A program made the position numbers and the translations under genes. A stretch of DNA of 64,000 nucleotides from an uncultured Actinomycetes bacterium (GTDB taxonomy: Bacteria > Actinomycetota > Actinomycetes > Streptosporangiales > Streptosporangiaceae): the NCBI GenBank assembly GCA_963847965.1, contig CAWKCG010000043.1, positions 258,191 through 322,190 on the forward strand, given 5' to 3'. The notes under the pieces were generated by a model. The model did no database searches. It was not told the DNA's origin and worked only from the letters and a program-made list of their open reading frames with translations. Positions 3,529 to 25,504 of the stretch are shown here, piece after piece. The stretch's first letter is position 1. Each line of letters begins with the position of its first letter.

Positions 3529-5362
3529 TTGCGCTAGCTGCCGCCTTAGCGCTGACGGCAGTGTTCGTGCCGGGAGCGGCGTTAGTGCTCGATGTTGTCG
3601 TGATGCCAATGGCTGAACGGCTCCCGGCGGCCAGCTGGCGATCCGTAACCTTCCGCCAGCCGGTGCTGATCAGCTGCGGCAGGGTTGAATAGATGGTGCA
3701 GGTCAGCACCGGCGCCTCGACCGTGCGCTGGAATCCGATGGCGATCAGGCCGGACTCGGCGGCCAGCGTGATGGGGGCATTCGCCGTGACGCTGACCCGG
3801 AACCTGCCTCCGCCCGGCCAGGTGACCACGGCCCCACCGGAGACCAGCCGCAGCACCGATCCGGGCGCGAAGTGCCAGCGGACGACGCTCGTGTGCGATC
3901 CAGAGCCAAGGACCATGTCCTCGACCTGGAGCCCGGCCTCGCTCAGCGACCAGCGGCGGCGGTGCCACGGATGGCCGGGTAGCTTCCGGTATCCGTCATG
4001 CGCGGCCTCGACGCTCAGCACACCCTGGTCAGCCTGAGTGAAGACATTGCTCACCCGGGCCCGGCGGCCGGCCCGGAACGCCCCCCACACCTCGGTCGAG
4101 TTAGCGCCGTCCACCTCGACGGTGTTGTGCGCCGCGGTGGACCGCTCGTGACCGCGTGTCGGGCCGAGCGCATAGGTCGACGTGCCGGTGTCCACTAGCA
4201 GCGGTACGCCATCCACGTGAAGCAAGCAGCTCAACGTGTCGGCATGGGCGTGCGCCGGCAGCTCGTCCGGGCAGGGCGCTCCGACGTCGGCCAGCAGGTG
4301 CCAGCCGCCCACTGCCGCCCGTACCAACCCGCTGTCCGGCATGACCTGCAACGGCTCAGTACCGGACGGTTCTGCCCGCAGGGCGGCTAGCAGCCCAGCG
4401 CTGACCGGATAGCCGTCGTTAAGCAGCGGCACCTGCCCGTCCGGAGATAGCACGCAGCCCAGCCAGTAGCGCATTCGCTGGATCGCCGTTAGCAGCTCCG
4501 GCCCGGGCTGGCGCTCGGTGGCCCGCAGCAAGCCCGAGATGTCGATCAGATCCGCGAGCACCTGACAGTGATAGGCGGGCGCCCGCTCGTAATGTCCTCC
4601 GTCGTCGAGCACCTGCACCGCGAGCTGCCGGACCAGCCGGTCCAGTGCCCAATCGAGCAACCGCTCGTCGGCGAAGAATACAGCCAACCCGGCTAGCGCC
4701 TTGAGGTCCTTGATCAGGTGGTTGCCGCCAACGTCGACTTCCAGGTTTCGGCGCAGGAAGCCGACATGGGTGGCGAGGCTGGCGAGAAAGGGGCCTTCGA
4801 TCTTGCTGTCCGCCACGAGCGGCCGGTACAGCCCGCAGAACGACCAGGCGCGCAGGGCCGATGGATACGGCAGCCATGCATCACCCCGGCCGACCGTTAC
4901 GGACTCCTGCCACGACCGCCACAGCACCGCGAACAAGTCCTGGGCCGCCGACCGGCCCGGCTCGCCGGTCAGCGTCCAGGCCCAGTCCCAGTAGTGCAGG
5001 TGGAACCGCCACAGCCGCGGCGCGCTGACCTGAGCCCAGTCGGCCTGCCAGTAGCCGTCGTCCCCGTACTGGTGCCGAGGCGGAAGGCCCAGGACCTTAG
5101 AAATTCCGAGCAGCGTGATGCGGCCGGACCGGAGCCCACCTAGTTCGGGCCGACGCCGCCAGACCCGTCCGTCTATTGGGCGGAACCGGGCAGGCCAGCC
5201 GACTGCGGATGCCGGGTCAGTGCCGGCCAGCAGCCAGCGGCCCGCCAGCCGGGAATGCCGCAGCAACGACCGCTGCGCGCGGAGCCTGGCCCGCTGTGTG
5301 ACCTGGCCAGGCTGCAGTAGGGCCGCGGTTCTAACGAGTGCCCTCAGCTCACCGACGGTCAT
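3125..5362 (-). CDS. heparinase II/III-family (alginate-lyase-like) protein; 3' end anomalous
   Basis: 745-aa ORF. The N-terminus is MTVGELRALVRTAALLQPGQ. Family-like blocks include YPSALRAWSF, GGNHLIKDLKAL, DGGHYERAPAYH, HAHADTLS and STAAHNTVEVDG. ATGA start/stop overlap with the upstream epimerase gene at 5359-5362. The last ~170 aa are Arg/Gly/Pro-rich and overlap the next gene. Confidence 0.75.
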   Translation of the reverse strand: MTVGELRALVRTAALLQPGQVTQRARLRAQRSLLRHSRLAGRWLLAGTDPASAVGWPARFRPIDGRVWRRRPELGGLRSGRITLLGISKVLGLPPRHQYGDDGYWQADWAQVSAPRLWRFHLHYWDWAWTLTGEPGRSAAQDLFAVLWRSWQESVTVGRGDAWLPYPSALRAWSFCGLYRPLVADSKIEGPFLASLATHVGFLRRNLEVDVGGNHLIKDLKALAGLAVFFADERLLDWALDRLVRQLAVQVLDDGGHYERAPAYHCQVLADLIDISGLLRATERQPGPELLTAIQRMRYWLGCVLSPDGQVPLLNDGYPVSAGLLAALRAEPSGTEPLQVMPDSGLVRAAVGGWHLLADVGAPCPDELPAHAHADTLSCLLHVDGVPLLVDTGTSTYALGPTRGHERSTAAHNTVEVDGANSTEVWGAFRAGRRARVSNVFTQADQGVLSVEAAHDGYRKLPGHPWHRRRWSLSEAGLQVEDMVLGSGSHTSVVRWHFAPGSVLRLVSGGAVVTWPGGGRFRVSVTANAPITLAAESGLIAIGFQRTVEAPVLTCTIYSTLPQLISTGWRKVTDRQLAAGSRSAIGITTTSSTNAAPGTNTAVSAKAAASANASLRPGEPCETDRPASLGRASRCTGRAAAGAGCDRGPGAYGRVGDLSRHRARTHRTRSSGPAREGAGSAGPGPAGDPQGAVRWAGRHQAGSAGPTRQRPTAGLLCGWHCDRGGPGRHRGVARPARGHGRRGQG

Positions 5363-6295: not shown

Positions 6296-7045
6296 TCATC
6301 TTTCCGTCGGGTTCACATGATCTGCGCCCTTGTGGGCCACGAACGTCAGGTTCTGGGTGACAATGTGGCCGCGCAGCATTCCTGTCTCGGCGGCTAGGGC
6401 GATCCGGTAGCAGGCGCTTACCACCTGCCAGGTCATGACGCGCGCCGCACTGACCAGCCCGTGCGCGACCGGTGGGGAAGAGCGTGCGAGGACTGAGTTG
6501 AAGCCGGCCGCGAGGGCGAGCTGACGGATGCTGCGCGCGGTGAACGACGTCTGATGCGTGAAGTCCCCGTCGCGGATATGCCCCCCGAGCGGGCTGACGG
6601 CGTTTGGGACCCGGCCCACGAAGACGCCGCCGGGCGCCAACGCCGCAGCCACGTCATCGAACGTCCGGAGAACCTCGGGCTTAGTGAAGTGCTCCAGCAG
6701 GTCGGTGGCCGTAACCGCGGCATAGTGACCAGGTTGCGCGGCGAGGACGGCCCGGAAGTCCCCCTGGCAGACCCGAGCCACGCCTGCCGCTCGGGCGAGT
6801 GCCGTCTGTTCAGGACTGATGTCAACGCCCTCTGCGTCAAAGCCGTCCGCCTCTAGTAGCCGGACCAACTCGCCGCGCCCGCAGCCGATGTCCACAACGG
6901 GGCCGGCTGCGGGCGGCGGCAGTAGGGGCCGAAGATCGCGGCGGTACACGAGAGCAGCCGCGTTGTCTCCACCGCGACCCGCATGCTGTGAGGCGTAGGC
7001 CTCGTAAAGCCGACTGCGCAGGTCGGTCAGGCTAGCGTCGATCAC
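6296..7045 (-). CDS. class I SAM-dependent methyltransferase
   Basis: Motif I VVDIGCGRGELV; acidic motif II (GVDISPEQ); 249 aa. Confidence 0.85.
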   Translation of the reverse strand: MIDASLTDLRSRLYEAYASQHAGRGGDNAAALVYRRDLRPLLPPPAAGPVVDIGCGRGELVRLLEADGFDAEGVDISPEQTALARAAGVARVCQGDFRAVLAAQPGHYAAVTATDLLEHFTKPEVLRTFDDVAAALAPGGVFVGRVPNAVSPLGGHIRDGDFTHQTSFTARSIRQLALAAGFNSVLARSSPPVAHGLVSAARVMTWQVVSACYRIALAAETGMLRGHIVTQNLTFVAHKGADHVNPTER

Positions 7046-7541
7046 ATTAGGATACTAGTCAAATACTCTCTGTAAGAAAAATCCTAATGCACGCACTCAG
7101 TCATTGATCATCCGCGGGTCTGTCGACCGTTCAGTTCCCGCACGAGCAACTCACCGGGCAGATTCGCTGATGGCTACCGTATTTCGGTGGTGCGTCGGCC
7201 ACCGCACTCGCTCATCGGGTGGGTAGCCACCGTCTCATGACCCCTTGCCCTAATTGTGTACATGTCGAAATAATCAGCATATCGCGCAAATGTACCTATG
7301 TAAGCTGATCTCTCGTAGATTTACCGATATTTCGTATATTTCTTTGCGGCGCAGCTGGTTACGAGTTATGATTATTGAATGTCCCCCGTCCGCGAAGGCA
7401 AGGCAGGCACTTGGTACGCTGACAGTGCGGTTAGTCGAGGTAAAGGCTAACGTCGTCTGCAGGTACTATCAGTGAATAGGCCCGTCTTCTAACTCGTCGG
7501 CGCCGGTTCAGAACCAAGCATCGCACTGGGGGAATTGCCCG

Positions 7542-8555
7542 ATGATAATAGGGGTTATCGGCTCGACGGGCCCAGATGATTTTGCTGACAACATCGCCGA
7601 TTCACTTCGCAGAATGGGCCACGTTGTGGCGCAGCTGGGGCCCGCTCAAGGCCAACATCGGGGAAGATTCACCAATAGAGCCGTCACTCTGACGAGGCAG
7701 GCTTTCCCCGCTCTCGATGAACAAATTCAACGTCGGATTGTACAGGCCGCTAAGCGCGCGGGCTGTGAAGTTGTTATCAATATCGATGCGCGCCTGACGC
7801 CAGACGCTGTAACTCGGCTCAGAAGCATTGGCGCTCGCGTGGTGCTCTGGTTTCCCGATCATGTGGCGAACATGGGGCGTCAGCTAATGTTGCTTTCGCC
7901 ATATGATGCCTTCTTTTTTAAGGAACCACATCTTGTCGAGCGCCTGCGGGCCAACCTAGGCATTCCTGTCTACTACATGCCCGAGGCATGCAATCCGAGA
8001 TGGCATCGACCGCTCGGTCCGGCAGGCATCGAACCGTATCTGGTCGTCGCGGGCAATATATATCCAAATCGAGTGCGCCTCTTGGATCGTTTGATCGCCA
8101 AAGGGATCCCGCTCAAGGTATACGGTCCTGGCATCCCGCGATGGATAAGAGACACCGCTTCCCGAGAATTTCATACCGGGCACTATATCGCTCGCGAGGA
8201 GAAATCAAAGATCTTTCGCTCTGCAGTCGGTGTCCTCAATACTATGTATCCAGCGGAGATTATGGGAGTCAACGCGCGCCTATTCGAGGCTGCCGGCTCT
8301 GGCGCTGCTGTGCTCACGGAGTTCCGTCCTGCCCTGCCCCACTTGTTCGAAGTTGGCAAAGAGGTTCTAGCGTTCGAGGATTTCGATGAATTGCTCTACC
8401 ATGCAATGCGTCTGCTAGAGGATGCTGATCTATCCGGGCGGATAGGAGATGCCGCAGCCTTGCGGGCCCATCGAGACCATACTTACGATCTCCGCCTCGC
8501 CGACATCTTGGAGAAAGTCTCGTTACGCTACGGATATGGTCCGGGGCGCGCATAG
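7542..8555 (+). CDS. CgeB-like glycosyltransferase (Glyco_trans_1_2 type C-terminal domain)
   Basis: 337 aa. The C-terminal block (GVNARLFEAAGSGAAVLTE...AFEDFDEL) resembles CgeB/DUF3880-type GTs. GGGGGAA sits 7-13 nt upstream of the ATG. The gene follows an AT-rich 0.5-kb intergenic region. Confidence 0.65.
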   Translation: MIIGVIGSTGPDDFADNIADSLRRMGHVVAQLGPAQGQHRGRFTNRAVTLTRQAFPALDEQIQRRIVQAAKRAGCEVVINIDARLTPDAVTRLRSIGARVVLWFPDHVANMGRQLMLLSPYDAFFFKEPHLVERLRANLGIPVYYMPEACNPRWHRPLGPAGIEPYLVVAGNIYPNRVRLLDRLIAKGIPLKVYGPGIPRWIRDTASREFHTGHYIAREEKSKIFRSAVGVLNTMYPAEIMGVNARLFEAAGSGAAVLTEFRPALPHLFEVGKEVLAFEDFDELLYHAMRLLEDADLSGRIGDAAALRAHRDHTYDLRLADILEKVSLRYGYGPGRA

Positions 8556-8583
8556 GAGCGTTCATGCGCTCGAACAAAACGTC

Positions 8584-8611
8584 CGCCTCTGGATCGAGAA
8601 CTCCAGAGGCG
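8584..8611. terminator. perfect 10-bp stem hairpin between convergent genes (candidate bidirectional terminator)
   Basis: CGCCTCTGGA-tcgagaac-TCCAGAGGCG read directly from the sequence; there is no U-tract. Confidence 0.4.
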
Positions 8612-8708
8612 AGGCAGATCCCTACCTCCACTGAGCAGCCGCTCACAGAGTTGCGGCCCGGGGAAGCCGACGCCGCCAGTGACGATGCCGCGCCTGATAG
8701 GGAAGCGG

Positions 8709-10046
8709 TCACCCGCCGAACCCAACAATAGTTAGTCCCGCATCTGCCGCCACGTCCTCAGCGATGACGCCGCGACCGTCGAGGATTAGGCGGCCCCTCA
8801 TATTCTCGCGGAGCTTGCGCAGGTCGAGCGCGGCAAAATGCGGCCACTCAGTAGCGATGACGACAGCGTTGGCTCGGTCGGCGGCGTCATATTCATCTGC
8901 CCCGATCCGCACCGGGACGTCGTGGAGCTCAGGGACCTCCTTGACGATCGGGTCATAGGCGCTAACTACCGCACCCGCCTTGTGCAGTCGACGGATAATC
9001 TCGATCGAGGGTGCGTCCCGAAGGTCGTCGGTATCCGGCTTGAAAGCGAGGCCGAACACCGCGATACGCCGGCCCTTCAGCGTCTTCAGCGCCGCCTGCA
9101 GCTTGCGCAGTACCAAGACCCGCTGGGCCTGGTTGACCTCGACGACCGCGCGAAGGATGGGCGTCCCATAACCGTAGTCGAGCCCGGTGGCGATGAGTGC
9201 GGCAACGTCCTTGCCGAAGCACGACCCGCCCCAGCCGATACCGTGCCTCAGAAACCGTGGCCCGATCCGGGAATCGGCGCCGATGGCCATAAGGACCTGC
9301 CGAGGATCCGCACCCACAAGCTCACAGATGTTGGCGATCTCGTTCGCGAACGAAATCTTGGTGGCGAGGAAAGCGTTGGCGGCGTACTTCACCATCTCCG
9401 CTGACGGCAGGTCGGTGCGGATCAACTGCGGCTGGTAGTCCGGTCGGCCGCCCTCAAAGTCCTGGCTGAGCAACCGGTGGTAGAGGTCCGCAACCACCTG
9501 CATACCCTTGTCCCTCCTGTCGCCGCCCAGGACGATCCGGTCCGGGTACAGGAAGTCCTCGACCGCTGCGCCCTCGCGCAGGAACTCTGGGTTCGACACA
9601 ACGTGGAACTCGACGCTGTCGGCATCGGGCAATGTCTCCTCGATCAAGGTATGGACCCAGTTACTGGACCCGACAGGTACCGTCGATTTGTTCACGACCA
9701 CGGCGCCCGACTTCAGGTGCGGCGCGATCGACCTCACGGCCGCCTCAACCTGGGACATGTCGGGAACCCCGCTGTTGCCAGTAGGTGTGCCGACGCACAG
9801 AAAGATCACGTCGGCGTTTCCGACAGCTGCCGCCGGGTCAGTGGTAAACGATAGCCGACCGGACTCTAGCGCCTGCTCTAGCCGCTCGGGCATACCCGGC
9901 TCATGAAACGGCACCTGCCCAGCTGCGAGTTGTTCAGCCCGGGTCCGATCGACATCAAGACCTACCACGTCATGGTCCAGCAATGCGAGACAGATTGCAG
10001 TAACCGTGCCGACGTAACCGGTGCCCACCACCGTCACGCGTACCAT
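8709..10046 (-). CDS. ugd: UDP-glucose 6-dehydrogenase
   Basis: N-terminal VTVVGTGYVGTVTA; catalytic GGSCFGKD; C-terminal FKPDTDDLRDAP; 445 aa. GAAAGGTAGG lies upstream of the ATG. Confidence 0.9.
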   Translation of the reverse strand: MVRVTVVGTGYVGTVTAICLALLDHDVVGLDVDRTRAEQLAAGQVPFHEPGMPERLEQALESGRLSFTTDPAAAVGNADVIFLCVGTPTGNSGVPDMSQVEAAVRSIAPHLKSGAVVVNKSTVPVGSSNWVHTLIEETLPDADSVEFHVVSNPEFLREGAAVEDFLYPDRIVLGGDRRDKGMQVVADLYHRLLSQDFEGGRPDYQPQLIRTDLPSAEMVKYAANAFLATKISFANEIANICELVGADPRQVLMAIGADSRIGPRFLRHGIGWGGSCFGKDVAALIATGLDYGYGTPILRAVVEVNQAQRVLVLRKLQAALKTLKGRRIAVFGLAFKPDTDDLRDAPSIEIIRRLHKAGAVVSAYDPIVKEVPELHDVPVRIGADEYDAADRANAVVIATEWPHFAALDLRKLRENMRGRLILDGRGVIAEDVAADAGLTIVGFGG

Positions 10047-10073
10047 GCCCGCCTACCTTTCGACTGCCTTAGG

Positions 10074-10213
10074 CACATTCCCCCAGCCAGAAAGTCGCCG
10101 CTGTCACCCGGCTCAGCCGAACGTTCCCTCCGCTCTACTACAGGGAAACCTTTAGTACATGATATATGACTTTAAGTGACTAGGGCAGCGGGCTCGCAGT
10201 CAACATGTCTACG
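10074..10213 (-). promoter_or_regulatory. conserved promoter/5' leader element, copy A (upstream of ugd)
   Basis: Reading the minus strand: TTGACT (10198-10203), 15 nt, TAGTCA (10177-10182), about 50 nt, palindrome GAACGTTC (10119-10126), 22 nt, then box GACTTTCTGGCTGGGGGAATGTG (10074-10096). The same order and spacing occur in copies B and C. Confidence 0.55.
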
Positions 10214-10388
10214 AATTGCTCTGCGTGCCGGTTGGGCCGTGGGCGTTGCCCGCTTGGGCACTAAACACTGAGATGACCCGTACGTCCCCAATTGCTCCGA
10301 TCATGACGGCTATGCCGCTTAAGCCCTCTAAGTGGAGGTAGTTTGTCCAGCCTTCGGCTGATGGCGCACCAAGGGGCCGTGAACCTCT

Positions 10389-12020
10389 TCAGGTTCGGCA
10401 CTCAGGCGAAGCCCCAGGAGAGGTCGTCGTCCAAAGGACGTACGTTACGCTGCTCTGCCCCGCGCTATTGAGCCCGGACGATACTTGGTCGTTGAACGTC
10501 GAAACCTGACGGAATCGATCTGGGAGATAACAGTACTCACGGTCGGGCTGGATCCCTGGAGGCAAAGCAAACCACGTTGGCTTGTACTGCTCTACGGCGC
10601 GGCGAAACTGGCCCTGAAGATTTGCGGTCTCGCCCCACCGCACCCCGTAGAGCAGTTGAAATTCGCGGAACTCAGCTCCGTCGGAGATGGCAGCGAAATA
10701 TACTCCCGGGATCCCCATGAGGTGCGCTCCGCGAGGAACGAATTGTTCGATATTTTTTGTAACCAAAATGGGGTCGCGCTGTCGGTAGAATTGATGGATC
10801 TCATAGGCGCGAAGCACTGGAAAAGCGAATCCATTCAGTAGTGCCATCAGGACAAGCCCACCTATCAGCTGGCGAAAACTCGTCCTCAGCTTTGTGCTCA
10901 GCAGTATTATTCCGACAGCGGCCGGAACCAATGAGATCAGGAATAGGAAGTCCATATAACTATCGGTACTCGCTGCGGCAACAACACCCGCACCTATGAG
11001 CGCCCCCGCTACATCAGGAGACATGCGCCACGGAAAGACGGCGAGACCGAGCAGAATCACTGCGACAATCGCAGGCGCGTACTTAACGACCTCAGCCACA
11101 TTACCCGCTTGTGCGCTCAGAAAACTTCCGTAATTTCCGGACCCTGCTGCGATAATGGAGTGCAAGAACTGGGACCGCCACTCATAGAAATGCAGTAGAC
11201 TCCAGACCCCGTACGGCAGCAGAACTAGTCCTGCACTTGCCAAGGCTCCCATCAGTGCAGCCCGACGCGAGATTCCGAGTCTCGCAGGACAGAAGATCAC
11301 GGCCACGATGATCCCAGCTGCTGGTCCGCCCAGAGCGGGATGTGTAAGGGTAGCGAGTAGCAAGAGCAGGAAACCTGCACTGACCCATATGGTTCTGTGA
11401 GTCTGCGCATGCGCCACCTTAACCTTGGAGACACTAAGCCAGCCCAGAAAGAGCAGCAGAACCCCGAGCCAATCACCTCTTGCGGATCGCGCCATCACGA
11501 TCGACTGCTCATTGAAAGCGAGTAGGAAAGCAGCTAGCAGGCCGGCAACTGAGGAGAGCAGCCTGCTAAGGCCGACCCGATTCGCTAGTGAGCGCGCAAG
11601 AAAGAAGCCTGCCACGATACCTGCGATATAGGGAGTCGCGCTACCAAGTCGAGCCACCGTTTCATTGAAGCCAAGAACCCGATATATTCCTGCCATTAGC
11701 AGAAAGTAAACAGGAGGTTGGATAAAAAAGTAATGATTAAGCCCGGCTATGTCGAAGAACATAGAGGCGGAGAGAGAACCGGAACTTGCAAGCATTCGGG
11801 CAGGTTCTGCGAAGAACACCTCGTCATCCCACGTCACTGGTGAGCGCGTGAGGCCGTACAGAACAAAGATGGCCGCTGTGCCGACGATGCCGATGAGCGC
11901 GAGCCAGATGTTGAGTGGTTCCCATCTTGTTAGCCAGTTATAGGCAATTTGACGTTGATTGCCGGAGTGTCTGGCAACATGACCGCGGTTCTGTGCCTGC
12001 GTCTGGGGAGCCCTGTCCAT
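10389..12020 (-). CDS. GT-C fold membrane glycosyltransferase (ArnT/PMT-like), polytopic
   Basis: 543 aa with more than 10 hydrophobic helices. An acidic loop motif (WDDEVFFAEP) follows helix 1. The C-terminal domain is soluble. GC is about 52% in a 60-nt sample, against about 75% in a topA sample. Confidence 0.6.
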   Translation of the reverse strand: MDRAPQTQAQNRGHVARHSGNQRQIAYNWLTRWEPLNIWLALIGIVGTAAIFVLYGLTRSPVTWDDEVFFAEPARMLASSGSLSASMFFDIAGLNHYFFIQPPVYFLLMAGIYRVLGFNETVARLGSATPYIAGIVAGFFLARSLANRVGLSRLLSSVAGLLAAFLLAFNEQSIVMARSARGDWLGVLLLFLGWLSVSKVKVAHAQTHRTIWVSAGFLLLLLATLTHPALGGPAAGIIVAVIFCPARLGISRRAALMGALASAGLVLLPYGVWSLLHFYEWRSQFLHSIIAAGSGNYGSFLSAQAGNVAEVVKYAPAIVAVILLGLAVFPWRMSPDVAGALIGAGVVAAASTDSYMDFLFLISLVPAAVGIILLSTKLRTSFRQLIGGLVLMALLNGFAFPVLRAYEIHQFYRQRDPILVTKNIEQFVPRGAHLMGIPGVYFAAISDGAEFREFQLLYGVRWGETANLQGQFRRAVEQYKPTWFALPPGIQPDREYCYLPDRFRQVSTFNDQVSSGLNSAGQSSVTYVLWTTTSPGASPECRT

Positions 12021-12395
12021 TAGGAAACTCGCAGATAGCGAGTTTCGTGCTCTGCGGCCGAGCCCGTGTCTTTATTCATAACGACTCCGTGATTGGTGGC
12101 TGTGTCTGGATCGGTCACCATGCTGGCGTTGAAGTTGATGACCTAGGCGCGACTGGCCCGGCGATCATAGGCGCCAACTCCGCTTCGCTTACTGCAGTCC
12201 TGCCCGGGACGATCCGCCATCAGGCGAACGATGTGGATTTATTGTAATATTGGGGTTAACCGTGCGGTTTCGGCGGTTCCTGGAATGCGGTATTCGCCAA
12301 GCACTTCGCCGCCAAACCGTTTTTGAGGCGCAGGAACGGTGATTCAATGAAACGATAAGATGCCGCAGCCACGATGAAGGTGGCTGCGACTGCGG

Positions 12396-13412
12396 CTATA
12401 TCGACCATGTCGAAGCCGATGTTATGCGCCACAGGCCAGGAGTACTATAAGCGCTGATGTAATGCTTGTAGGCTCCCCAGGCGCTGTGATAGACAATGTA
12501 ATGCCATAGATACAGACCGTAAGAGCGTCGACCGATCCACACCGCCGTCTTCGACGACAAAAGGCTGTCCAGGACCGGCGGCGCCGCGCCGGTCACGAGT
12601 CCCAACAGGATCAGGCCACTGGCCAGGGTGGCGACCGTTATTTCATACGGGACCTGGCCGGACGCGAATACGAAGACGGCCAGCAGAACGATCGTCCCGA
12701 TCCAGGTTGCAGCCCGCAGGGCCATGGCTGCGGGCTGCCGCAGTTGGGTCGATTCTCTCGAGGAGATCCAGAACGCCAGAGCGCAACCAACGATAAGTCC
12801 AGCAGAGTGGGTATCCGTGCCAAAATAGATGCGATCATGGTTGTAGTAACCGGCGGAGGCCATGACCTGACTGTATATCATTTCCGTCAAAGCAATAAGG
12901 GTCAGCGAGAGCGCGATGCGATTCCGGCGGAAGCCGCGCCGGGCGAGCAGGATGAAAAGCACAGGCCACGTGAAATAAAATTGTTCTTCGACGGCGAGAG
13001 ACCAGGTGTGCTGCATCCACCCCAGGTTCCCGGCTCCTATTCCGAATGCAGGGACAAAATTAGCAAGGTAAAAAACAACCCATGGAACCGCGGCAAACGT
13101 TTCTTGGGCGGCGGTGACCCCGACTCGACCCCCGGTCCGTTCCCCAAGCGCTACCAGCCCGACCGCGGCGACAATAAAACAGCAGAGGGCGGGGAATAGT
13201 CGCAGCGCTCTGCGCGCATAAAAGTTGCGGAGGCTGACGCTGCATTCATGGTTGTCCCATTCACCAATGAGTAGTGACGTGATAAGGAAGCCGGAGACCA
13301 CGAAAAATACATCAACCCCCCCGTAGCCACCCGAGTCAAAGTGGGGAAAATTGAGGTGGTAGATCATTACTGCCACTATGGCAACCGCCCGAAGGCCATC
13401 CAATGCTGGCAT
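12396..13412 (-). CDS. acyltransferase family 3 (O-acyltransferase) membrane protein; apparent frameshift near 12440-12460
   Basis: MPALDGLRAVAIVAVMIYH...GVDVFFVVSGFLIT...SYGLYLWH. The expected family C-terminus (AAVAATFIVAAASYRFIESPFLRLK) is encoded in another frame, down to the stop at about 12263. The track start at 13496 lies inside conserved leader copy B, so ATG 13412 is preferred. Confidence 0.7.
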   Translation of the reverse strand: MPALDGLRAVAIVAVMIYHLNFPHFDSGGYGGVDVFFVVSGFLITSLLIGEWDNHECSVSLRNFYARRALRLFPALCCFIVAAVGLVALGERTGGRVGVTAAQETFAAVPWVVFYLANFVPAFGIGAGNLGWMQHTWSLAVEEQFYFTWPVLFILLARRGFRRNRIALSLTLIALTEMIYSQVMASAGYYNHDRIYFGTDTHSAGLIVGCALAFWISSRESTQLRQPAAMALRAATWIGTIVLLAVFVFASGQVPYEITVATLASGLILLGLVTGAAPPVLDSLLSSKTAVWIGRRSYGLYLWHYIVYHSAWGAYKHYISAYSTPGLWRITSASTWSI

Positions 13413-13460
13413 ATACTGCTTCGACCGTGACCGGGCTGAGGACCCACGCTGCTGCGTCGA

Positions 13461-13602
13461 CACGTTCCCCCCAGTCGGAAAGTCTGCCGTTGTCACGATG
13501 CCCAGCCGGACGTTCCGTCTGCTGGATAGCTAGCTACCTTAAGTGTCCAATCTATCACTAACGGTGACTAGCGTAGCGGGCCCACAGTCAGCATGTCTAC
13601 GG
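13461..13602 (-). promoter_or_regulatory. conserved promoter/5' leader element, copy B (upstream of acyltransferase)
   Basis: CTGACT (13586-13591), 15 nt, TAGTCA (13565-13570), 49 nt, GGACGTTC (13508-13515), 23 nt, then GACTTTCCGACTGGGGGGAACGTG (13461-13484). Confidence 0.55.
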
Positions 13603-13865
13603 ATGCTCGACGGCCCTGGTCGGGCCGTTGGACGTGGCCCGTTCCCGCGGGGCTCGCACTGGCCACCTGAGCACGGACGCTCGCGGTTCTTCGCGGCCGG
13701 ATGCCGCCATGACGCGCAGGCACTGCGGAAATGGGGGGATTTAGATGGCTTGCGGAGTGGACTTCAACCTCCGAGGCGCGACCACCGAGCAATACGACCA
13801 GGTGACGCTTGGACTCAACAACGGGCAGCCCATGCACTCCCTGGCAGACTGACCGGGGAGGCGGA

Positions 13866-14223
13866 TGCGCCCATGCGTAGCAGCAGCTCGGCGACGCGGA
13901 TGGCGGGCGAATTGCGCGCGTCGCCGGTGTTCTTCTTGTAGGCGAGCCCCAGCAGCAGTATCCGGGACCCGATCACGAGCCGCCCGCGCTTGTTCAGGGC
14001 CAACAGCACCCGACGGACGACGTAATCCGGCATGTGGCTGTTGACGTCGTTGGCCAGCTCGACGAACCGGAAGCCCCGGCCCAGAGTCCGCTGCACCCGC
14101 CATGACAGGTACGACGGGTCAATAGGCAGGCTGTGGCCCCCACTCCTGGGGCGGGAGTGAACGGCATGAACCCGAACGGCTTGGTCAATGCCGCGTTGAT
14201 CGTCACCCACACGTCGACGCCGA
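13866..14223 (-). pseudogene. internal fragment of a nucleotide-sugar dehydrogenase (partial copy of 15232-15590)
   Basis: Aligned by eye, about 90% nucleotide identity over about 358 bp, including an identical run of roughly 85 nt. It translates as GGHSLPIDPSYLSWRVQRTLGRGFRFVELANDVNSHMPDYVVRR...LGLAYKKNTGDARNSPAIRVAELL. There is no N-terminal Rossmann domain and no C-terminus. Confidence 0.8.
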
Positions 14224-14260
14224 ATTGGCCATACCTCCACGTAGGGCCTCTGGTAACTAT

Positions 14261-14935
14261 CTAATTACGGTGTGTGCTTCGTTCGTAGATGAAGAAGTCT
14301 GCTCGACCAGGTTGAGAACTCGGGCCGCGGACTGTTTCCACGAGCTGCCATTGCGGGAAGTGTTCGTCCACCCATAGCGAAAAATTTCGATGACGCACGT
14401 GCGGGGCATCATCTTTTATCTGATTATTTGTAGAGTAGACCACGACGTATCGCTTACCCGCTGCGAATAGATGGTTCATGTAAGTGTGAAACACTTGATC
14501 TTCTACCAAATGATATATCACATCCAGCGAGAGAGCGGCATCTGCCGTGAACAATCCGGTGCGGTCGACGAAACAGTCGCCTTTATATAGGAAAAAACTC
14601 TTAGTTTGGTCATCGACGAACCGGGCCTTGCATAGTCCGATTGCAGCCGGCGATACGTCGAGTCCAATATAGCAAGGATAATTAGCCAGCGACAACTGGT
14701 GTCCGTCGCCGCATCCGAATTCGATTATGGAGCTTACTCGGTGGTCGCGGACGAATGCGTTCAGGAACTCTGCTTTACCGTGCCCCAGATCGCCATAGGA
14801 TCCCGGACCACTAGTGCGGCCCTTTGCATATTCCGACTCCCAGTAGCTGGCCGAGCTGCGGAAGTGCAACTGCTGACGCAGGATGGAGATCTGTCGCACT
14901 CCAGGAATCGGACGCACAACATCCTTAATGGTCAT
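14261..14935 (-). CDS. class I SAM-dependent methyltransferase
   Basis: Motif I IIEFGCGDGHQL; 224 aa; low GC. It lies between the dehydrogenase gene and its partial copy. Confidence 0.8.
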   Translation of the reverse strand: MTIKDVVRPIPGVRQISILRQQLHFRSSASYWESEYAKGRTSGPGSYGDLGHGKAEFLNAFVRDHRVSSIIEFGCGDGHQLSLANYPCYIGLDVSPAAIGLCKARFVDDQTKSFFLYKGDCFVDRTGLFTADAALSLDVIYHLVEDQVFHTYMNHLFAAGKRYVVVYSTNNQIKDDAPHVRHRNFSLWVDEHFPQWQLVETVRGPSSQPGRADFFIYERSTHRN

Positions 14936-15015
14936 CTATTCTCCCTTATTCTTAATGAGCACTATCCGGCGCTGTTAGATAGCGCAGCTTGGACGATAGA
15001 TCGCGTAGTCGCGCC

Positions 15016-16275
15016 TCACAGGGTCTCGACGTTCGGGCCGGACAGGACCTGCCGACAGTCCAGCACGTAACGCGCGTAGAGGCCTATATCGGTGGCCAGG
15101 AAGGCGTCATGGTCGGTGAGTAGCACCACGATGTCGGCGGCGGCGATCTCCCCGGGCGTAGCGTCAACGCGGGCGACGGCCGGGGAGATGGCGGTCGGCT
15201 CGGTCACCAGCGGGTCGGCTACCCGGACTTCTGCGCCCATGCGCATCAGCAGTTCGGCGACGCGGATGGCGGGCGAATTGCGCGCGTCGCCGGTGTTCTT
15301 CTTGTATGCGAGCCCCAGCAGCAGTATCCGGGACCCGATCATGGGCCGCCCGCGCTTGTTCAATGCCAAGAGCAGCCGGCGAACGACGTAATCCGGCATG
15401 TGGCTGTTGACGTCGTTGGCCAGCTCGACGAACCGGAAGCCCCGGCCCAGAGTCCGCTGCACCCGCCAGGACAGGTACGACGGGTCAATGGGCAGGCTGT
15501 GGCCGCCTACTCCCGGGCCGGGAGTGAACGGCATGAACCCGAACGGCTTGGTGGATGCGGCGTTGATCGCCTCCCACACGTCGACGCCGAGCTCGTGCCC
15601 GAACATCGCCAGCTCGTTCGCCAGCGCGATATTCACGTGCCGGAAGGTGTTCTCGATCAGCTTGGCCAGTTCCGCCACGCACGGCGAGGAGACCGGTACC
15701 GTCCGGTCCACAATTCCCTGGTAAAAGCTCTCCACCGCGGCCAGCGACTCATCATCAATGCCCGAAACGATCTTCGGCGTCGCGGCCAGGGTCCAGGATC
15801 CGTTTGCTGGGTCGATGCGCTCGGGGCTGTAGCCCAGGCGGAAATCGGTGCCCGCCGCCAGCCCGGACCCTTCTTCAAGCCAGGTGAGCACCTGCGCCTG
15901 GGTGGTTCCGGGGAAGGACGTGGACTCCAAGATCACCGTCGAGCCCGGGCGCAGGTAACGGGACAGCGTTCGGCTGGCCGCCTCGATGTAGGCCAGGTCG
16001 GGCAGGCCGTCCCGAAGCGGCGTGGGGACCGTGATCACGGCGACGTCGAAGCCGGTGCAGACGTCGGCATCCGCCGACAGCCAGAACCTTCCGGAGTTCA
16101 GCGCCGCGGCAAGCTCACAGGAGGACACGTCCTCGACGTACGATTCCCCGGCTTCCAGACGCTTTACCCGGACCGCGTCGGTGTCGTACCCGATAACCTC
16201 GTGCCCCACTGCGACGGCCCGGATCGCCAGCGGCAGACCCACGTATCCCAAGCCCGCCACCACTACCGCGGCCAC
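15016..16275 (-). CDS. nucleotide-sugar dehydrogenase (UDP-GlcNAc/UDP-ManNAc 6-dehydrogenase-like, WbpA/WecC type)
   Basis: VVAGLGYVGLPLA N-terminus; GGHSLPIDP catalytic region; LGLAYKKNTGDARNSPA C-terminal domain; GTG start; 419 aa. Confidence 0.88.
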   Translation of the reverse strand: MAAVVVAGLGYVGLPLAIRAVAVGHEVIGYDTDAVRVKRLEAGESYVEDVSSCELAAALNSGRFWLSADADVCTGFDVAVITVPTPLRDGLPDLAYIEAASRTLSRYLRPGSTVILESTSFPGTTQAQVLTWLEEGSGLAAGTDFRLGYSPERIDPANGSWTLAATPKIVSGIDDESLAAVESFYQGIVDRTVPVSSPCVAELAKLIENTFRHVNIALANELAMFGHELGVDVWEAINAASTKPFGFMPFTPGPGVGGHSLPIDPSYLSWRVQRTLGRGFRFVELANDVNSHMPDYVVRRLLLALNKRGRPMIGSRILLLGLAYKKNTGDARNSPAIRVAELLMRMGAEVRVADPLVTEPTAISPAVARVDATPGEIAAADIVVLLTDHDAFLATDIGLYARYVLDCRQVLSGPNVETL

Positions 16276-16403
16276 GAGCGTCCTCCCGCCGGACGCGACG
16301 CCATAGAAAGCTCACGATGCCGCCACGCGCAACACCGCCGGTGTGGCTGAATGGCGGTAGCCCAGTACAGCACGCATGATGAGGACTCAGGCCGCTCCTT
16401 AAC

Positions 16404-16541
16404 CACATTCCCCCCAGCCAGAAAGTCCGCCCCTGGTGTCGCCCAGCGAACGTTCACGCCCGCCGTTCGTCAGGCAACTCAAAGTACTTGATCTGCGACT
16501 TTCAGTAACTAGCTTAACGATCTGCTATCAGCATGTCCACG
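16404..16541 (-). promoter_or_regulatory. conserved promoter/5' leader element, copy C (upstream of dehydrogenase)
   Basis: CTGATA (16526-16531), 14 nt, TAGTTA (16506-16511), 50 nt, GAACGTTC (16448-16455), 20 nt, then GACTTTCTGGCTGGGGGGAATGTG (16404-16427). This copy sits about 130 nt from the GTG start. Confidence 0.5.
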
Positions 16542-16623
16542 TAGCTGAACTGCGAGAGCGTCGGCCCGCTGGGATAGGCTCCGTGCGGCAGCAGGTGTCC
16601 CCCTCAACCGGAAGGCACGGACG

Positions 16624-17652
16624 ATGCAGGTCCTGATCGCCGGGGGCGCAGGCTACATCGGCAGCACAATCGCCTCGGCTTGCTCGGATTCCGGCATCAA
16701 CCCAGTGATCCTGGACAGTCTCGTGACGGGCAGACGCGAGCTGGCGGCGGGCCGGGAGTTCTATGAAGGCGAAATCGCAGACGGCGAGTTGATCGATCGC
16801 ATCTTCGCGGAGCACCCGGACATCGGCGCGGTGATCCATTGCGCGGCCCTGATCGTGGTCCCCGATTCGGTAGCCGATCCGGTCGGGTACTACCGGGCCA
16901 ACGTGACCAAGAGCTTGGACTTCGCCGCGCATCTGCTGCGCAACGGTTGCGGACGGCTGATCTTCAGTTCGTCGGCCGCCATTTACCGGGTCAGCGAGGA
17001 CCTGAGCGTGGATGAGGACTCGCCGATCGATCCGCAGAGCCCGTACGCACGCACCAAGGCCGTGTGCGAGGCGATGTTCGCTGACATCGCCGCGACGCAG
17101 CCCATCCGCGTTATGTCCCTGCGGTACTTCAACCCGATCGGCGCGGATCCCAAGATGCGCACGGGCCTGCAACTTGCGCGGCCGACCCATGCGCTGGGCA
17201 AGATGATCCAGGCGCAAGAGGAGGGTGTTCCGTTCCTGGTCACCGGAACGGACTATCCGACGCGGGATGGGTCAGGCCTCAGGGATTACATCCACGTCTG
17301 GGACCTGGCCACGGCCCACGTGGCCGCGCTGGACAAGTTCGATGCCCTACCAGGGCCGACGACCGTAATCAACCTGGGGACTGGTCGGGGTACCACTGTC
17401 CGGGAGCTTCTAGACGCGTTCAACCATGTCGCCGAGAGGCCGATCGAGGCACGCGACGCCGCGCGTCGGCCGGGTGACATAGCTGGCGCCTACACCCGGA
17501 TCGACCGTGCGACGCGCCTTCTTGGTTGGCAGCCGCAATACGACATCACCACAGGCATCCGTCACTCGCTTCAGTGGGCCGCGATCCGCGACGAGATCCT
17601 CTCCGGAAATGCCGCCTCGCCAAACCATCGAATTAACTCTCCGGAGCGCTGA
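16624..17652 (+). CDS. galE: UDP-glucose 4-epimerase
   Basis: MQVLIAGGAGYIGS; SSSAAIY; YARTK catalytic YxxxK; RYFNPIGA; 342 aa. Confidence 0.9.
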   Translation: MQVLIAGGAGYIGSTIASACSDSGINPVILDSLVTGRRELAAGREFYEGEIADGELIDRIFAEHPDIGAVIHCAALIVVPDSVADPVGYYRANVTKSLDFAAHLLRNGCGRLIFSSSAAIYRVSEDLSVDEDSPIDPQSPYARTKAVCEAMFADIAATQPIRVMSLRYFNPIGADPKMRTGLQLARPTHALGKMIQAQEEGVPFLVTGTDYPTRDGSGLRDYIHVWDLATAHVAALDKFDALPGPTTVINLGTGRGTTVRELLDAFNHVAERPIEARDAARRPGDIAGAYTRIDRATRLLGWQPQYDITTGIRHSLQWAAIRDEILSGNAASPNHRINSPER

Positions 17653-19628: not shown

Positions 19629-19661
19629 ACCACTCGCGAACGGCCACGCGTCGTAGTTCAT

Positions 19662-19738
19662 CGGATGCAACCGTCCATATCGGTTGATAGCCGCTTGGCT
19701 CCTGTGCTCTGCTTTCCCAGACAGTCGCGAATCCCGCG
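19662..19738 (+). repeat. upstream repeat R1 (leader/promoter-like), 5' of the sortase region
   Basis: GGATGCAACCGTCCATATCGGTTGATAGCCGCTTGGCTCCTGTGCTCTGCTTTCCCAGACAGTCGCG matches the 3' half of R3 (23424-23489). Confidence 0.7.
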
Positions 19739-19857
19739 GCGACGGGAGCAACATGGGCGAGCAAGGCGGCCGTGGCATGCCGTCCGGGAGTGTCCCTCCC
19801 GGCGGCCAGGCCGGGCCCGCGCCCATCCCGATGACATCGGCATGCGCCGCGGGAAAT

Positions 19858-20087
19858 CCATCGTGGGCCCAGGTCCTGGGCACCACCATCCGCCTGTGGC
19901 TGGCCCGGCGAATGCCGCGCATCAGCATCGAATGGCCAGACATGTCGTCGGGCCAGGCGGCGGTCGGCCACTCGGCGCCTGTGCCCGTCCTGAGAACGCC
20001 GCGTGGATCCATCCTGGGGACAGGTCCTTCTCACGACCATCCGCCTATGGCTGGCCCGCCGAATGCCGCGCATCAGCATCGAATGGC
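19858..20087 (+). repeat. 151-bp-period tandem duplication of the 5' coding end of the sortase gene
   Basis: 19858-19936 and 20009-20087 align at about 88% identity (ccatcgtgggcccaggtcctgggcaccaccatccgcctgtggctggcccggcgaatgccgcgcatcagcatcgaatggc vs ccatcctggggacaggtccttctcacgaccatccgcctatggctggcccgccgaatgccgcgcatcagcatcgaatggc). The offset of 151 is not a multiple of 3. Confidence 0.85.
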
Positions 20088-20997: not shown

Positions 20998-21888
20998 TCA
21001 CTGGCCGGCTGCGCTGGCCGTCCGGCGTGACCGGCGCAGGCTGGCGAACCCGGCCATGGTCAGCAGCGCGCCGACGGTGATGGTCAGCAGCCACGGCGCG
21101 GGATTCCCGGGCAGGCGGGGCGCGGTCCCGCCGAAGCCGGTGTTGGCTCCGCCCTGCGGCATGATCTGGCTGCCCACCGCGTCGGTGAGGGTATCTACCT
21201 TCAGCCCCGACGAGTCGTCAAGCACCACGATGGTGTGAATCGTGTTAGCGGCGAGGTCGACCGACATGGCGGCGTGCTCACCCGGCGCCGTGAACTGCAC
21301 GGTCCGGGTGCCTGGTGAGACGGCCACGTACGAGGTGGCCGAGCCGAAGGGAAGTTGCTGCGCCAGGACGTCCGGTCCGTAGCTGACCGTCACCCGAGGC
21401 TCCTTGAGCGAGGCCTGGAACACCCGGACAAGCACCTGTCCGGCCGGTGCGGTCATCTGGTCTTCGAGCACCTCCACCCGCAGGCCTGGATCGGGGCCGA
21501 GCGCAGCCACGGTGTAGGCCTTCCCCGCGCTCACCGTGAAACTCGTGCTCAGCGCGGGAGCGCTTGACGCCGGCGCGCCGAAGCCCCGCATCGCCACCGT
21601 GTACTGGCCGGGGCTGACCGCCATGTAGGCGGAGACGTCGCCGTAGCTGACGTCTCTCAGTACGGTCGCGTGGCCGGGGTTGCTGAATGTATACAGGTAC
21701 ATGTCCATCGCCGGCGCCTTAGGGGACAGATGGGCAATCCTGACCCAGCCATCCTGCGAGGCCGCGGGTGCGGCGGAAGCCGTGGAAGCGGCGTATGCCG
21801 CGGGTGATGTGGCCGCGACCAGGGCAGCGGTGCCCGCCAGCAGCGTCGCGATCGTAGCCAGCCGGGCACCAAGCCAGAGCAGCCTCAT
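20998..21888 (-). CDS. DUF4397-domain surface protein with signal peptide and C-terminal sorting-signal-like tail
   Basis: Signal peptide MRLLWLGARLATIATLLAGTAALVAATSPAAYA. Repeated GWVR..HLSP / Y.V..G.YTV blocks. C-terminus GGANTGFGGTAPR, then a hydrophobic helix, then RRSRR. Confidence 0.8.
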   Translation of the reverse strand: MRLLWLGARLATIATLLAGTAALVAATSPAAYAASTASAAPAASQDGWVRIAHLSPKAPAMDMYLYTFSNPGHATVLRDVSYGDVSAYMAVSPGQYTVAMRGFGAPASSAPALSTSFTVSAGKAYTVAALGPDPGLRVEVLEDQMTAPAGQVLVRVFQASLKEPRVTVSYGPDVLAQQLPFGSATSYVAVSPGTRTVQFTAPGEHAAMSVDLAANTIHTIVVLDDSSGLKVDTLTDAVGSQIMPQGGANTGFGGTAPRLPGNPAPWLLTITVGALLTMAGFASLRRSRRTASAAGQ

Positions 21889-23227: not shown

Positions 23228-23371
23228 ATCCGCCACCTCTCCGCCACCCCCGCGGCCCTGCAGGTCATGTGCGACAGGACAGCACAAGAGCACGCCGACG
23301 GCAACCAATATCACCGATTGGTTATAAAGGCGTGCGACTCGACCAGATCTTCGTGTGCCTGCCGGTGGACG

Positions 23372-23489
23372 GTGCGCCCATGTACCGATAAGCGACCAGA
23401 CCACTGCGCACCGCAGTATCTGGGATGCAATCTTCCATATCGGTTGATATGGGCTAAGCTCCTGTGCTCTTCTGTCCCAGACGGTCACG
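23372..23489 (+). repeat. upstream repeat R3 (full-length copy; R2 half plus R1 half)
   Basis: Contains small hairpins ACTGCG-cac-CGCAGT and CCATATC-ggtt-GATATGG. It ends 19 nt before GTG 23508. A weaker inverted copy (R4) lies at 23269-23319, facing the 21902 gene. Confidence 0.7.
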
Positions 23490-23507
23490 CTTGGTCGAGG
23501 GGCAGGG

Positions 23508-24602: not shown

Positions 24603-25504
24603 GGCTACGCAGGTGTTTCGCCCGGCTCGCCGCGATAACTACGCTGCTCGGCAGCGCCATTGCCTGCCTCGCGGCCTCACCGCCTGCGGCATCCGCCGCC
24701 GCGACGGGTGCGGCTGGCGCGGCTGGCGCCGCGGGCACAGCCGCGACGAATGACGGGTGGGTGCGGTGCGCCAACCTGTCCCCAGGCACGCCGGCCGTTG
24801 ACATCTACCTCTACGCGTTCGGCAACCCCGGGCATCCGACCATCCTGAGGCACGCTGACTACGGCAACGTGTCCAGCTACATGGCGGTGAGCGCAGGCGA
24901 GTACACGGTCGCGATGCGCCCCGTCGGCGCGACGGCGTCAAGCCCGCCCGTAGTTTCGACCAACTTCATGGTGAGCGCCGGGTCGGCCTACACCGTGGCC
25001 AGCATCGGATCGTCCGCGGCGCGCCGGGCACTGGTCCTGACCGACCAGATGGCCGCGCCGAAAGGCCAAGCGCTGGTCCGGGTTATCCAGGCGTCGGTAA
25101 AGCAGCCGCAGGTCACCGTCGACGATGGGCAGGACGTCCTCGCCCAGCAGTTGACCTTCGGCTCGGCGACCTCGTACATGGCCGTGCAGCCCGGCACGCA
25201 GACCGTGCAGTTCATCGCGTCGGGTGAGAAGACCTCCATGTCCGTCACCCTGACCGGCGGCTCGGTCCACACGATTGTCGTCCTGGACGGCTCCTCGGGG
25301 CTGAAGGTCGACATCCTGACCGACGCGGCAGGCAGCCAGGTCGCGCCGACCGGGGGCGCCGCCACGGGCCTGGGCGGGACAGCGCCGCGCGACACCGACC
25401 TGATCCCGTGGGCGGGCACGCTGGCGGCCGGGTTGCTGCTTGTTACCGCCGGTGTCATCGGGCTGCGCAGGTCTCGCCGAACCGCAGCCGTAGGGCACGA
25501 GTAA
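24599..25504 (+). CDS. DUF4397-domain surface protein with signal peptide and C-terminal sorting-signal-like tail
   Basis: About 60% identity by eye to the 20998 product. C-terminus GGAATGLGGTAPR, then a hydrophobic helix, then RRSRR. Confidence 0.8.
   Translation: MRLRRCFARLAAITTLLGSAIACLAASPPAASAAATGAAGAAGAAGTAATNDGWVRCANLSPGTPAVDIYLYAFGNPGHPTILRHADYGNVSSYMAVSAGEYTVAMRPVGATASSPPVVSTNFMVSAGSAYTVASIGSSAARRALVLTDQMAAPKGQALVRVIQASVKQPQVTVDDGQDVLAQQLTFGSATSYMAVQPGTQTVQFIASGEKTSMSVTLTGGSVHTIVVLDGSSGLKVDILTDAAGSQVAPTGGAATGLGGTAPRDTDLIPWAGTLAAGLLLVTAGVIGLRRSRRTAAVGHE

Follow-up and report, generated by a model that had tools for sequence, protein, structure and literature searches.

A stretch of 64,000 nt from contig CAWKCG010000043.1 of an uncultured bacterium of the family Streptosporangiaceae was analysed at its full length (hereafter, the window). 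It carries a locus for surface-glycan synthesis in which three minus-strand genes are each preceded by a copy of the same repeated element. Copy A lies upstream of ugd (8709-10046, with the ATG at 10046), copy B upstream of a gene for an O-acetylase of the Acyl_transf_3 family (12396-13412 or 12396-13463; hereafter, the acyltransferase), and copy C upstream of a gene for a UDP-N-acetylhexosamine (UDP-HexNAc) dehydrogenase (15016-16275; hereafter, DH). DH and ugd encode distant members of one family, and ugd and the acyltransferase gene are not paralogues of each other. The organism has a high GC content and comes from soil or peat; sequences related to the window were found only in metagenome runs, and the closest named homologues come from metagenome-assembled genomes (MAGs) of Streptosporangiaceae. 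The coordinates of the copies and of their parts are collected in Table 1.

An original prediction, made from the letters of the window, described three minus-strand copies of a promoter and leader composed of four blocks, and we found the copies where it had placed them, with the blocks in the order and at the spacing described: a hexamer, 14-15 nt, TAGT(C/T)A, about 50 nt, GAACGT(T/C)C, 22-25 nt, and a G-rich box (G-box). The degenerate 17-mer GACTTTCYGRCTGGGGG, which represents the G-box, has exactly three perfect matches in the window, and exactly three perfect matches were likewise found for the block CGTRGACATGYTGA. When up to three mismatches were allowed, the 17-mer matched at five positions, compared with an expected 0.71, and five matches were reached in none of 100 shuffled sequences. 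A profile hidden Markov model (HMM) recovered the three copies with E-values of 1e-32 to 1e-46, and detected no fourth copy in the 64-kb window. Some details of the prediction needed correction. The limits given for the copies were too narrow, since local alignments extend beyond them: A and B align over 10252-10074 and 13641-13461, similarity between B and C reaches down to 13437 and 16380, and similarity between A and C down to 10067 and 16397. The variant of the palindrome given for copy B was a misreading, the sequence being GAACGTCC rather than GGACGTTC. The statement that sequence between the blocks is not conserved was too strong; the mean column identity in a three-way alignment is 76%, and the region between the second and third blocks holds an AT-rich inverted repeat.

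Pairwise identity among the three copies is 58-71%, and rises in the best 50-column window to 80% for A and B, 76% for A and C, and 76% for B and C. Copy B is closest to the element of a related locus, L013 (82%; 80% over 13746-13431), and copy C to that of L016 (69%), to which it is orthologous, with 89% identity through both the element and DH. The word "triplicated", used in the original prediction, suggests a recent duplication in situ, which is at odds with copies that are only 58-71% identical and with a copy B that is nearer to L013 than to A or C; judging from this divergence, the copies are old.

Distribution of the element and the junctions of copies A and B

The related loci were gathered in two ways. 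DH orthologues L016-L022 were collected by protein identity only, and hence constitute an unbiased test of whether the element accompanies the gene, while L006, L013 and L015 were found by DNA pattern. The element is present directly upstream of DH in L016, L017 and L018, whose DH proteins have 88-93% amino-acid identity to that of the window, and a diverged version is present upstream of DH in L019 and L020 (82-83% identity). L021 has remnants only, and L022, in which DH lies inside an operon, has no element. Among the loci found by DNA pattern, L006 and L013 likewise have the element in front of a DH gene, and L015 has it in front of a gene without an assigned identity. Thus, a lack of conservation in orthologous loci, which the original prediction had named as evidence that would count against it, is not what we observed; the element is kept at orthologous DH loci. 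An exact-pattern scan of 185,579 species genomes (one per species) yielded 12 matches, among which only L006 is a true homologue. Matches L007 and L008 are coding sequence, and the other nine are from unrelated phyla, a number that fits the roughly 16 chance matches estimated. A scan of metagenomes yielded two true homologues, L013 and L015, and one further match, L014, that is probably due to chance. At 2650-2750 of L014, an unrelated metagenome contig, a promoter-like pair, TTGACG-N17-TAGAAA, is followed about 25 nt downstream by a GACTTTCGGGCTGGGGGTAAGGTG box (nhmmer E = 0.006), which either matches by chance or is very distantly related to the G-box region.

By contrast with DH, the other two genes lack the element at their orthologous positions. 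There is no element upstream of ugd orthologues in six loci (L023-L028) that represent three different orthologues with 85-90% identity, and these loci are homologous to the window only as far as 10069, 23 nt before the ATG of ugd. Similarly, there is no element upstream of the acyltransferase orthologue in L029, for which homology to the window begins at 13436, inside the native acyltransferase open reading frame (ORF). Given that the element is found at DH orthologues, and neither at the ugd orthologues of L023-L028 nor at the acyltransferase orthologue of L029, we conclude that DH is the gene to which it natively belongs, and that in this genome ugd and the acyltransferase gene captured it. 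The three copies would then be paralogues of the native DH upstream region, with copy C as the native one.

The two junctions differ in kind. Copy A would have taken the place of the native promoter of ugd, up to a point 23 nt before the ATG, leaving a 7-codon upstream ORF whose TAG stop codon lies inside the ugd Shine-Dalgarno sequence (GAAAGGTAGG), 6 nt before the ugd ATG. Copy B would have replaced the native promoter, start codon and first seven codons of the acyltransferase gene, giving an in-frame fusion: the GTG that follows the G-box of copy B, together with eight further codons, is in frame with acyltransferase codon 8 across the junction at 13437/13436, in place of the native start codon and the native N-terminus MMIAQGE. 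An internal fragment of a DH gene upstream of copy B (Table 1) is a trace of the recombination that brought copy B in. In L013 the arrangement is intact, in the order DH, methyltransferase, element, DH, which explains the presence of a DH fragment upstream of copy B. DH fragments similar to this one also occur in L017, at 4851-5222 and 13633-14031. The original prediction had allowed that the blocks might be remnants of one duplicated gene fragment. This is correct insofar as A and B each represent a captured 5' end of the DH transcription unit; nonetheless, the junctions are such that function would be preserved.

Promoter, leader and start codon

We aligned 11 copies of the element (A, B and C, and those of L006, L013 and L015-L020; alignment A4). 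The sequence CGT(A/G)GACA is nearly invariant in this alignment. The hexamer T(A/G)GACA within it matches TTGACA at a mean of 4.9 of six positions, with five matches in ten of the 11 copies and four in L006. The only column-conserved TANNNT window in the alignment lies 17-18 nt further downstream and is present in 10 of the 11 copies; its T1, A2 and T6 are fixed, with variation at positions 3-5 (TACGCT, TAAGCT, TACTCT, TACCAT, TACTGT, TAGGCT). Housekeeping promoters of actinobacteria have a TANNNT -10 and a -35 resembling NTGACC or TTGACA (PMC4895711). The element is similar to these promoters in its fixed T/A/T -10 and in the TTGACA-like hexamer 17-18 nt upstream, and differs from them in that its -35 region is conserved over 8 nt, more than a hexamer would need. 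Moreover, the element fills a divergent intergenic region in both copy C and L015, such that the promoter of the downstream gene must lie inside it. The original proposal of a promoter and leader that act at the level of DNA or RNA is supported by these data, whereas the hexamers that it named, TTGACT and TAGTCA, are not the conserved ones. Being immediately downstream of the -10, TAGTCA would be the start-site region; transcription is predicted to start within the conserved AGT(T/C)AC at this position, near 10176 in copy A, 13564 in copy B and 16505 in copy C. A simple scan for the sigma-70 consensus found no match inside the elements, because criteria of the Escherichia coli type are overly strict when applied to actinomycetes. 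The GGAACG and GGGGAAT boxes were also considered as promoters of the extracytoplasmic-function (ECF) type (GGAAC...CGTT) or of the SigB/SigF type (GTTT...GGGTAT), and these readings were rejected by eye, having the wrong spacing and a misfit in copy C. Metatranscriptome contigs that align to copy C are only fragments from related organisms that cover the G-box, with no 5' ends among them.

The predicted leader opens with an AT-rich imperfect inverted repeat, ACTnAAAGT-N12-ACTTTnAGT, at predicted positions +1 to +32. This is the most conserved non-promoter block across the 11 copies, in a lineage with a GC content of ~70%. The arms of the repeat are 75% paired, compared with 25-41% when one arm is slid along the other. 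G-U pairs (seven) are not enriched over A-C pairs (five), and this count does not separate an RNA hairpin from a DNA palindrome. We consider the inverted repeat to be the best candidate for a control site shared by the copies: it may be an operator at which initiation is blocked, or a 5' hairpin that stabilises the mRNA. A role as the shared operator that the original prediction envisaged is unlikely for the GAACGTTC palindrome, which is intact in only four of the 11 copies. Searches against Rfam, covering the whole window at the gathering threshold and 9500-17500 at a permissive E-value, returned only two tRNAs and noise. When each leader was folded individually and compared with shuffled sequences, the minimum free energy (MFE) z-score was between +0.2 and -0.7 for eight of the 11, with lower values for L016 (-1.35), L020 (-2.42) and L006 (-3.35). 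The predicted folds differ between copies, and the RNAalifold consensus fold is weak.

Comparison of the related loci points to a simple identity for the G-rich box, namely a Shine-Dalgarno sequence with a start codon after it. The box of L017 and L018 consists of GGGAGG or GGGGGG, followed by AATGCR, and is positioned 6 nt before the GTG of DH; this GTG opens the conserved DH N-terminus VAAVVVAGLG. The same direct junction between G-box and DH is present in a related metagenomic "transcriptomic" contig (loose end at 16275). In all of the other nine copies a start codon is found 3 nt after the G-run (GTG in eight, ATG in L016). We do not regard the box as a novel motif of the ops kind, given that its position in L017 and L018 is that of the DH Shine-Dalgarno sequence.

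In most copies, the start codon after the G-run opens an upstream ORF rather than DH itself. These upstream ORFs are 43-47 codons long in copy C, L016, L013 and L019, ending in a GTGA on the DH start codon in L013 and L019, and in a TAG 8 nt inside DH in copy C (16265-16263, with the DH GTG at 16275) and L016. They are truncated in L015 (19 codons), L020 (6 codons) and copy A (7 codons), absent from L017 and L018, and fused to the downstream gene in copy B and L006. We rejected the possibility of a selected leader peptide: the longer ORFs can be aligned over 43-47 codons, but the differences between them fall evenly on the three codon positions (105/84/93), showing that the peptide is unselected. 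Being missing, short or fused in several copies, the upstream ORF can be dispensed with, and it may be a side effect of the duplication of a Shine-Dalgarno region. Indeed, copy C has a second, DH-proximal Shine-Dalgarno sequence (GGCGGGAGGA) near the 3' end of its upstream ORF, and the resemblance of the DH Shine-Dalgarno sequence at this end of the ORF (CCGGCGGGAGGA) to the G-box (CCGGCTGGGGGGAA) suggests that the different architectures interconvert by duplication or deletion between the repeats. The way in which the upstream ORFs of copy C, L016, L013 and L019 meet or overlap the DH start codon is reminiscent of translational coupling by overlapping stop and start codons such as GTGA; unlike in such systems, the peptide is unselected and the ORF is missing, short or fused in other copies. 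In L006, 8 nt at the start of DH are duplicated in tandem (GGTCGTAG GGTCGTAG; minus strand, ~7540-7580). The duplication introduces a stop codon into the normal DH frame, and puts the upstream ORF that begins at the G-box in frame with DH, resulting in a fused ORF of 456 amino acids. This fusion could be a real rescue by the upstream start codon or an error in the MAG assembly.

Table 1. Positions in the window of the three copies of the element, their predicted parts and a DH-gene fragment
Feature	Position	Strand	Remarks
Copy A, whole repeat	10067..10252	-	Upstream of ugd; limits from local alignments; nhmmer E = 2.5e-32 to 6.7e-42
Copy A, predicted -35, TAGACA	10206..10211	-	A4 columns 18-23; 5/6 to TTGACA
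Copy A, predicted -10 position, TGCCCT	10182..10187	-	G for A at position 2; sole TANNNT failure among 11
Copy A, inverted repeat, ACTTAAAGTC-N10-TACTAAAGGT	10148..10177	-	
Copy A, palindrome, GAACGTTC	10119..10126	-	Third block of the original prediction
Copy A, G-run (10084-10080), AAT spacer, GTG (10076-10074)	10074..10084	-	Homologous to the DH Shine-Dalgarno sequence of L017 and L018
Copy A, 7-codon upstream ORF, VPKAVER*	10053..10076	-	
Copy B, whole repeat	13437..13746	-	Includes upstream flank common to L013; fused to the acyltransferase gene
Copy B, predicted -35, TAGACA	13594..13599	-	A4
Copy B, predicted -10, TACGCT	13570..13575	-	TANNNT; 18-nt spacer
Copy B, inverted repeat, ACCGTTAGTG-N10-CACTTAAGGT	13536..13565	-	
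Copy B, G-run (13472-13467), AAC spacer, GTG (13463-13461)	13461..13472	-	
Copy C, repeat proper	16380..16541	-	Divergent intergenic region between a galE-like gene (16624, plus strand) and the DH unit
Copy C, predicted -35, TGGACA	16534..16539	-	A4
Copy C, predicted -10, TAAGCT	16511..16516	-	TANNNT; 17-nt spacer
Copy C, inverted repeat, ACTGAAAGTC-N10-TACTTTGAGT	16477..16506	-	
Copy C, G-run (16415-10), GTG (16406-04), 47-codon upstream ORF	16263..16415	-	
DH-gene fragment (pseudogene), 358 nt, internal	13866..14223	-	Upstream of copy B; both ends missing; 94% identity to 15232-15590

Other features of the window

The GC content of the window is 54-61% between 7 and 15 kb, compared with ~70% around. 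This low-GC island (7000-15000) spans genes for a glycosyltransferase, ugd, a 543-aa membrane protein, the acyltransferase and a methyltransferase, and is typical of the horizontally exchanged, variable portion of a glycan locus. The 543-aa multi-pass membrane protein (10389-12020, minus strand) is encoded directly upstream of copy A and has no Pfam match. A nucleotide homologue with 88% identity is present in L018, where the gene appears to be split. We consider the protein to be a candidate member of an undescribed family of glycan polymerases or glycosyltransferases. For the acyltransferase, the ORF stops at 12396, yet nucleotide homology to L029 runs on to 12162 (12162-12396, minus strand); the orthologous proteins have about 60 additional residues, and a conserved YRFIESPF motif is retained in them.

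Several other repeats are found in the window. Two DUF4397 genes in opposite orientation (20998-21888, minus strand; 24599-25504, plus strand) are part of a duplicated module in which 80-nt segments with 72-95% identity are repeated (19647-20087 and 23361-23655); these segments include the upstream regions and N-terminal codons of a sortase-linked ORF. At 61191-61475, a 30-nt unit is repeated in tandem in about nine copies (92-97% identity) inside a DUF6510 gene (61219-61926, minus strand), where it encodes a 10-residue protein repeat. Lastly, segments at 55349-55561 and 63083-63298 are paralogous (74-87% identity), and the former lies inside a large gene for a LuxR/MalT-type regulator (55210-57876), which suggests that there is a second regulator of this type near the end of the window.

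Interpretation of the element

We propose that each copy of the element is a complete expression cassette, native to DH, and that two diverged versions of it were joined by recombination to ugd and the acyltransferase gene; we consider this reading probable (roughly 0.7). The cassette would comprise a promoter of the housekeeping (sigma-70/HrdB-like) type, with T(A/G)GACA and TANNNT separated by 17-18 nt, a transcription start just downstream of the -10, a ~110-nt 5' untranslated leader beginning with the inverted repeat, a G-run serving as a Shine-Dalgarno sequence, and a GTG start codon. Its native site would be in front of the DH gene that heads a variable block of surface-glycan genes in an uncultured actinomycete lineage of soil and peat, where copy C is still found. 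Because the three units have homologous signals for the start of both transcription and translation, they are probably expressed in parallel, and the original claim that three transcription units of the glycan locus are under homologous control sequences is well founded.

A number of observations weigh against this reading. The -10 of copy A lacks the critical A, such that its promoter may be weak or dead, with ugd being read through from the upstream gene. The promoters and start codons are putative assignments made from conservation alone, and the gap of 3-4 nt between G-run and GTG in the window copies is short for efficient initiation. The in-frame fusion at copy B had a one-in-three chance of arising by luck, and the acyltransferase gene that follows is probably frameshifted near its 3' end, making it either a pseudogene or the product of an assembly error. 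The peptides of the upstream ORFs show no selection of the coding type, and an open frame of ~45 codons is not improbable by chance in a GC-rich genome. Lastly, when pairs were counted, covariation in the helix of the inverted repeat was no better than in shuffled controls.

Other explanations have to be weighed against reuse of a DH expression cassette. Copies A and B could be non-functional debris, pieces of DH 5' regions that remained after repeated rounds of recombination within a hypervariable glycan island. The scattering of DH fragments through the window locus and L017, the low GC content of the island, the degenerate -10 of copy A and the apparent frameshift in the acyltransferase gene after copy B are all consistent with this idea. 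Nonetheless, the junction at copy A leaves the native ugd ribosome-binding site intact, the junction at copy B has the start codon of the cassette in frame where the native promoter and start codon are gone, and both copies keep the -35, inverted repeat, G-box and GTG of the orthologous DH copies. That these blocks have been kept despite ~30-40% overall divergence indicates continued purifying selection, and we think it unlikely that A and B are debris. An alternative possibility, along the lines of the original prediction, is that TTGACT and TAGTCA, separated by 14-15 nt, form the promoter, that GAACGTTC is an operator, and that the G-rich box recruits an elongation or antitermination factor in the manner of ops/JUMPstart. 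The four blocks are present and collinear in all three window copies, the elements head polysaccharide units as JUMPstart does, and TTGACT/CTGACT resembles the Streptomyces -35 motif NTGACC (PMC4895711). Across the 11 sequences, however, TTGACT matches TTGACA at a mean of only 3.0 of six positions and is not conserved in L006, L015, L017 and L018, and TAGTCA lacks the invariant final T of a -10, being TGGTTA in L006 and L015, and TAACTA, TAATTA or TGACTA in L016-L018; moreover, a spacer of 14-15 nt is short. The partial conservation of GAACGTTC and the Shine-Dalgarno position of the G-box, described above, also argue against this model. The ops element (GGCGGTAGnnTG) has no match on the minus strand in the elements, its six window-wide matches at up to one mismatch are at chance level (6.4 expected), and Pfam searches of ~40 ORFs of the window revealed no NusG/KOW paralogue (RfaH, LoaP) and no adjacent regulator. 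The analogy with JUMPstart/ops thus holds for position and fails for the ops motif and for a NusG paralogue in the window, and we regard the model as distinctly unlikely.

It is also conceivable that the leader is a structured cis-regulatory RNA, similar to a riboswitch or an attenuator, whose sensing of a metabolite or protein would gate the G-rich ribosome-binding site. The conserved 5' untranslated region is long (~110 nt), the sequences GCTGG and CCAGC recur near the ribosome-binding site and could pair alternatively, some copies have a possible GAAAGTC/GACTTTC helix, and the leader of L006 folds with a z-score of -3.35. Set against this, the leader matches no Rfam family at either threshold, eight of the 11 leaders have unremarkable folding energies, the folds vary from copy to copy with a weak consensus, and the sole consistent helix has neither covariation above that of shuffled controls nor an excess of G-U over A-C pairs. 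Together, these observations make a structured RNA of this kind very unlikely. Still less credible is a miniature mobile element with an outward-facing promoter, such as one of the MITE type (miniature inverted-repeat transposable elements) or a Correia-like element. It would account for the presence of multiple copies at one locus that precede unrelated genes, and genes for transposases and integrases are common in related loci, but neither terminal inverted repeats nor target-site duplications are shared by the copies, there are only three in 64 kb and one per related locus, L006 is the sole true match among the 12 pattern matches in 185,579 species genomes, and identities of 58-71% are unlike those of a recently active mobile family.

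The closest concept to the cassette that we propose is that of "putative mobile promoters" (Matus-Garcia, Nijveen, van Passel 2012), defined as sequences of at least 50 nt with at least 80% identity that are found in the upstream regions of non-paralogous genes in one genome (PMC3575422). In both cases, homologous non-coding sequences are found upstream of unrelated genes in the same genome, no recognisable mobile element is linked to them, and the inferred effect is a rewiring of expression. The copies described here are more diverged, at 58-71% overall, and their best 50-nt windows, at 76-80%, are borderline with respect to the 80% cut-off. They also differ in including a 5' untranslated region, a ribosome-binding site and a start codon, with copy B forming a translational fusion, and in that the source gene, DH, can be identified. 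With JUMPstart/ops and RfaH, or LoaP-type NusG paralogues, the cassette has in common that a conserved non-coding leader element heads surface-polysaccharide units, and that the element may also act as a patch of homology for cassette exchange. The most conserved 3' box of the cassette, in contrast to ops, appears to be a Shine-Dalgarno sequence with a start codon rather than a site for pausing or recruitment, and the sequences are unrelated.

A more far-reaching proposal, which we make tentatively and consider doubtful, is that the inverted repeat and the rest of the leader constitute a previously undescribed cis-regulatory switch on a portable cassette for expression and regulation, acting either as an RNA element or as an operator to which an unknown repressor or nucleoid-associated protein binds. 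If so, the switch would place surface-glycan genes that uncultured soil actinomycetes have newly acquired under a single control circuit. Our preferred reading, capture of the DH expression cassette, is an instance of promoter reuse and reveals no new type of regulatory signal or new principle. It serves as a reminder that a "G-rich box", however striking its conservation, may be no more than a Shine-Dalgarno sequence and start codon. It would also provide a natural example of how genes that are shuffled into a hypervariable surface-glycan locus come to be expressed, namely by capture of expression signals at base-pair-precise junctions, with one transcriptional fusion and one in-frame translational fusion. 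For an uncultured group of actinomycetes that is abundant in soil and peat, the element would represent a ready-made, lineage-specific expression cassette that carries a candidate regulatory inverted repeat.

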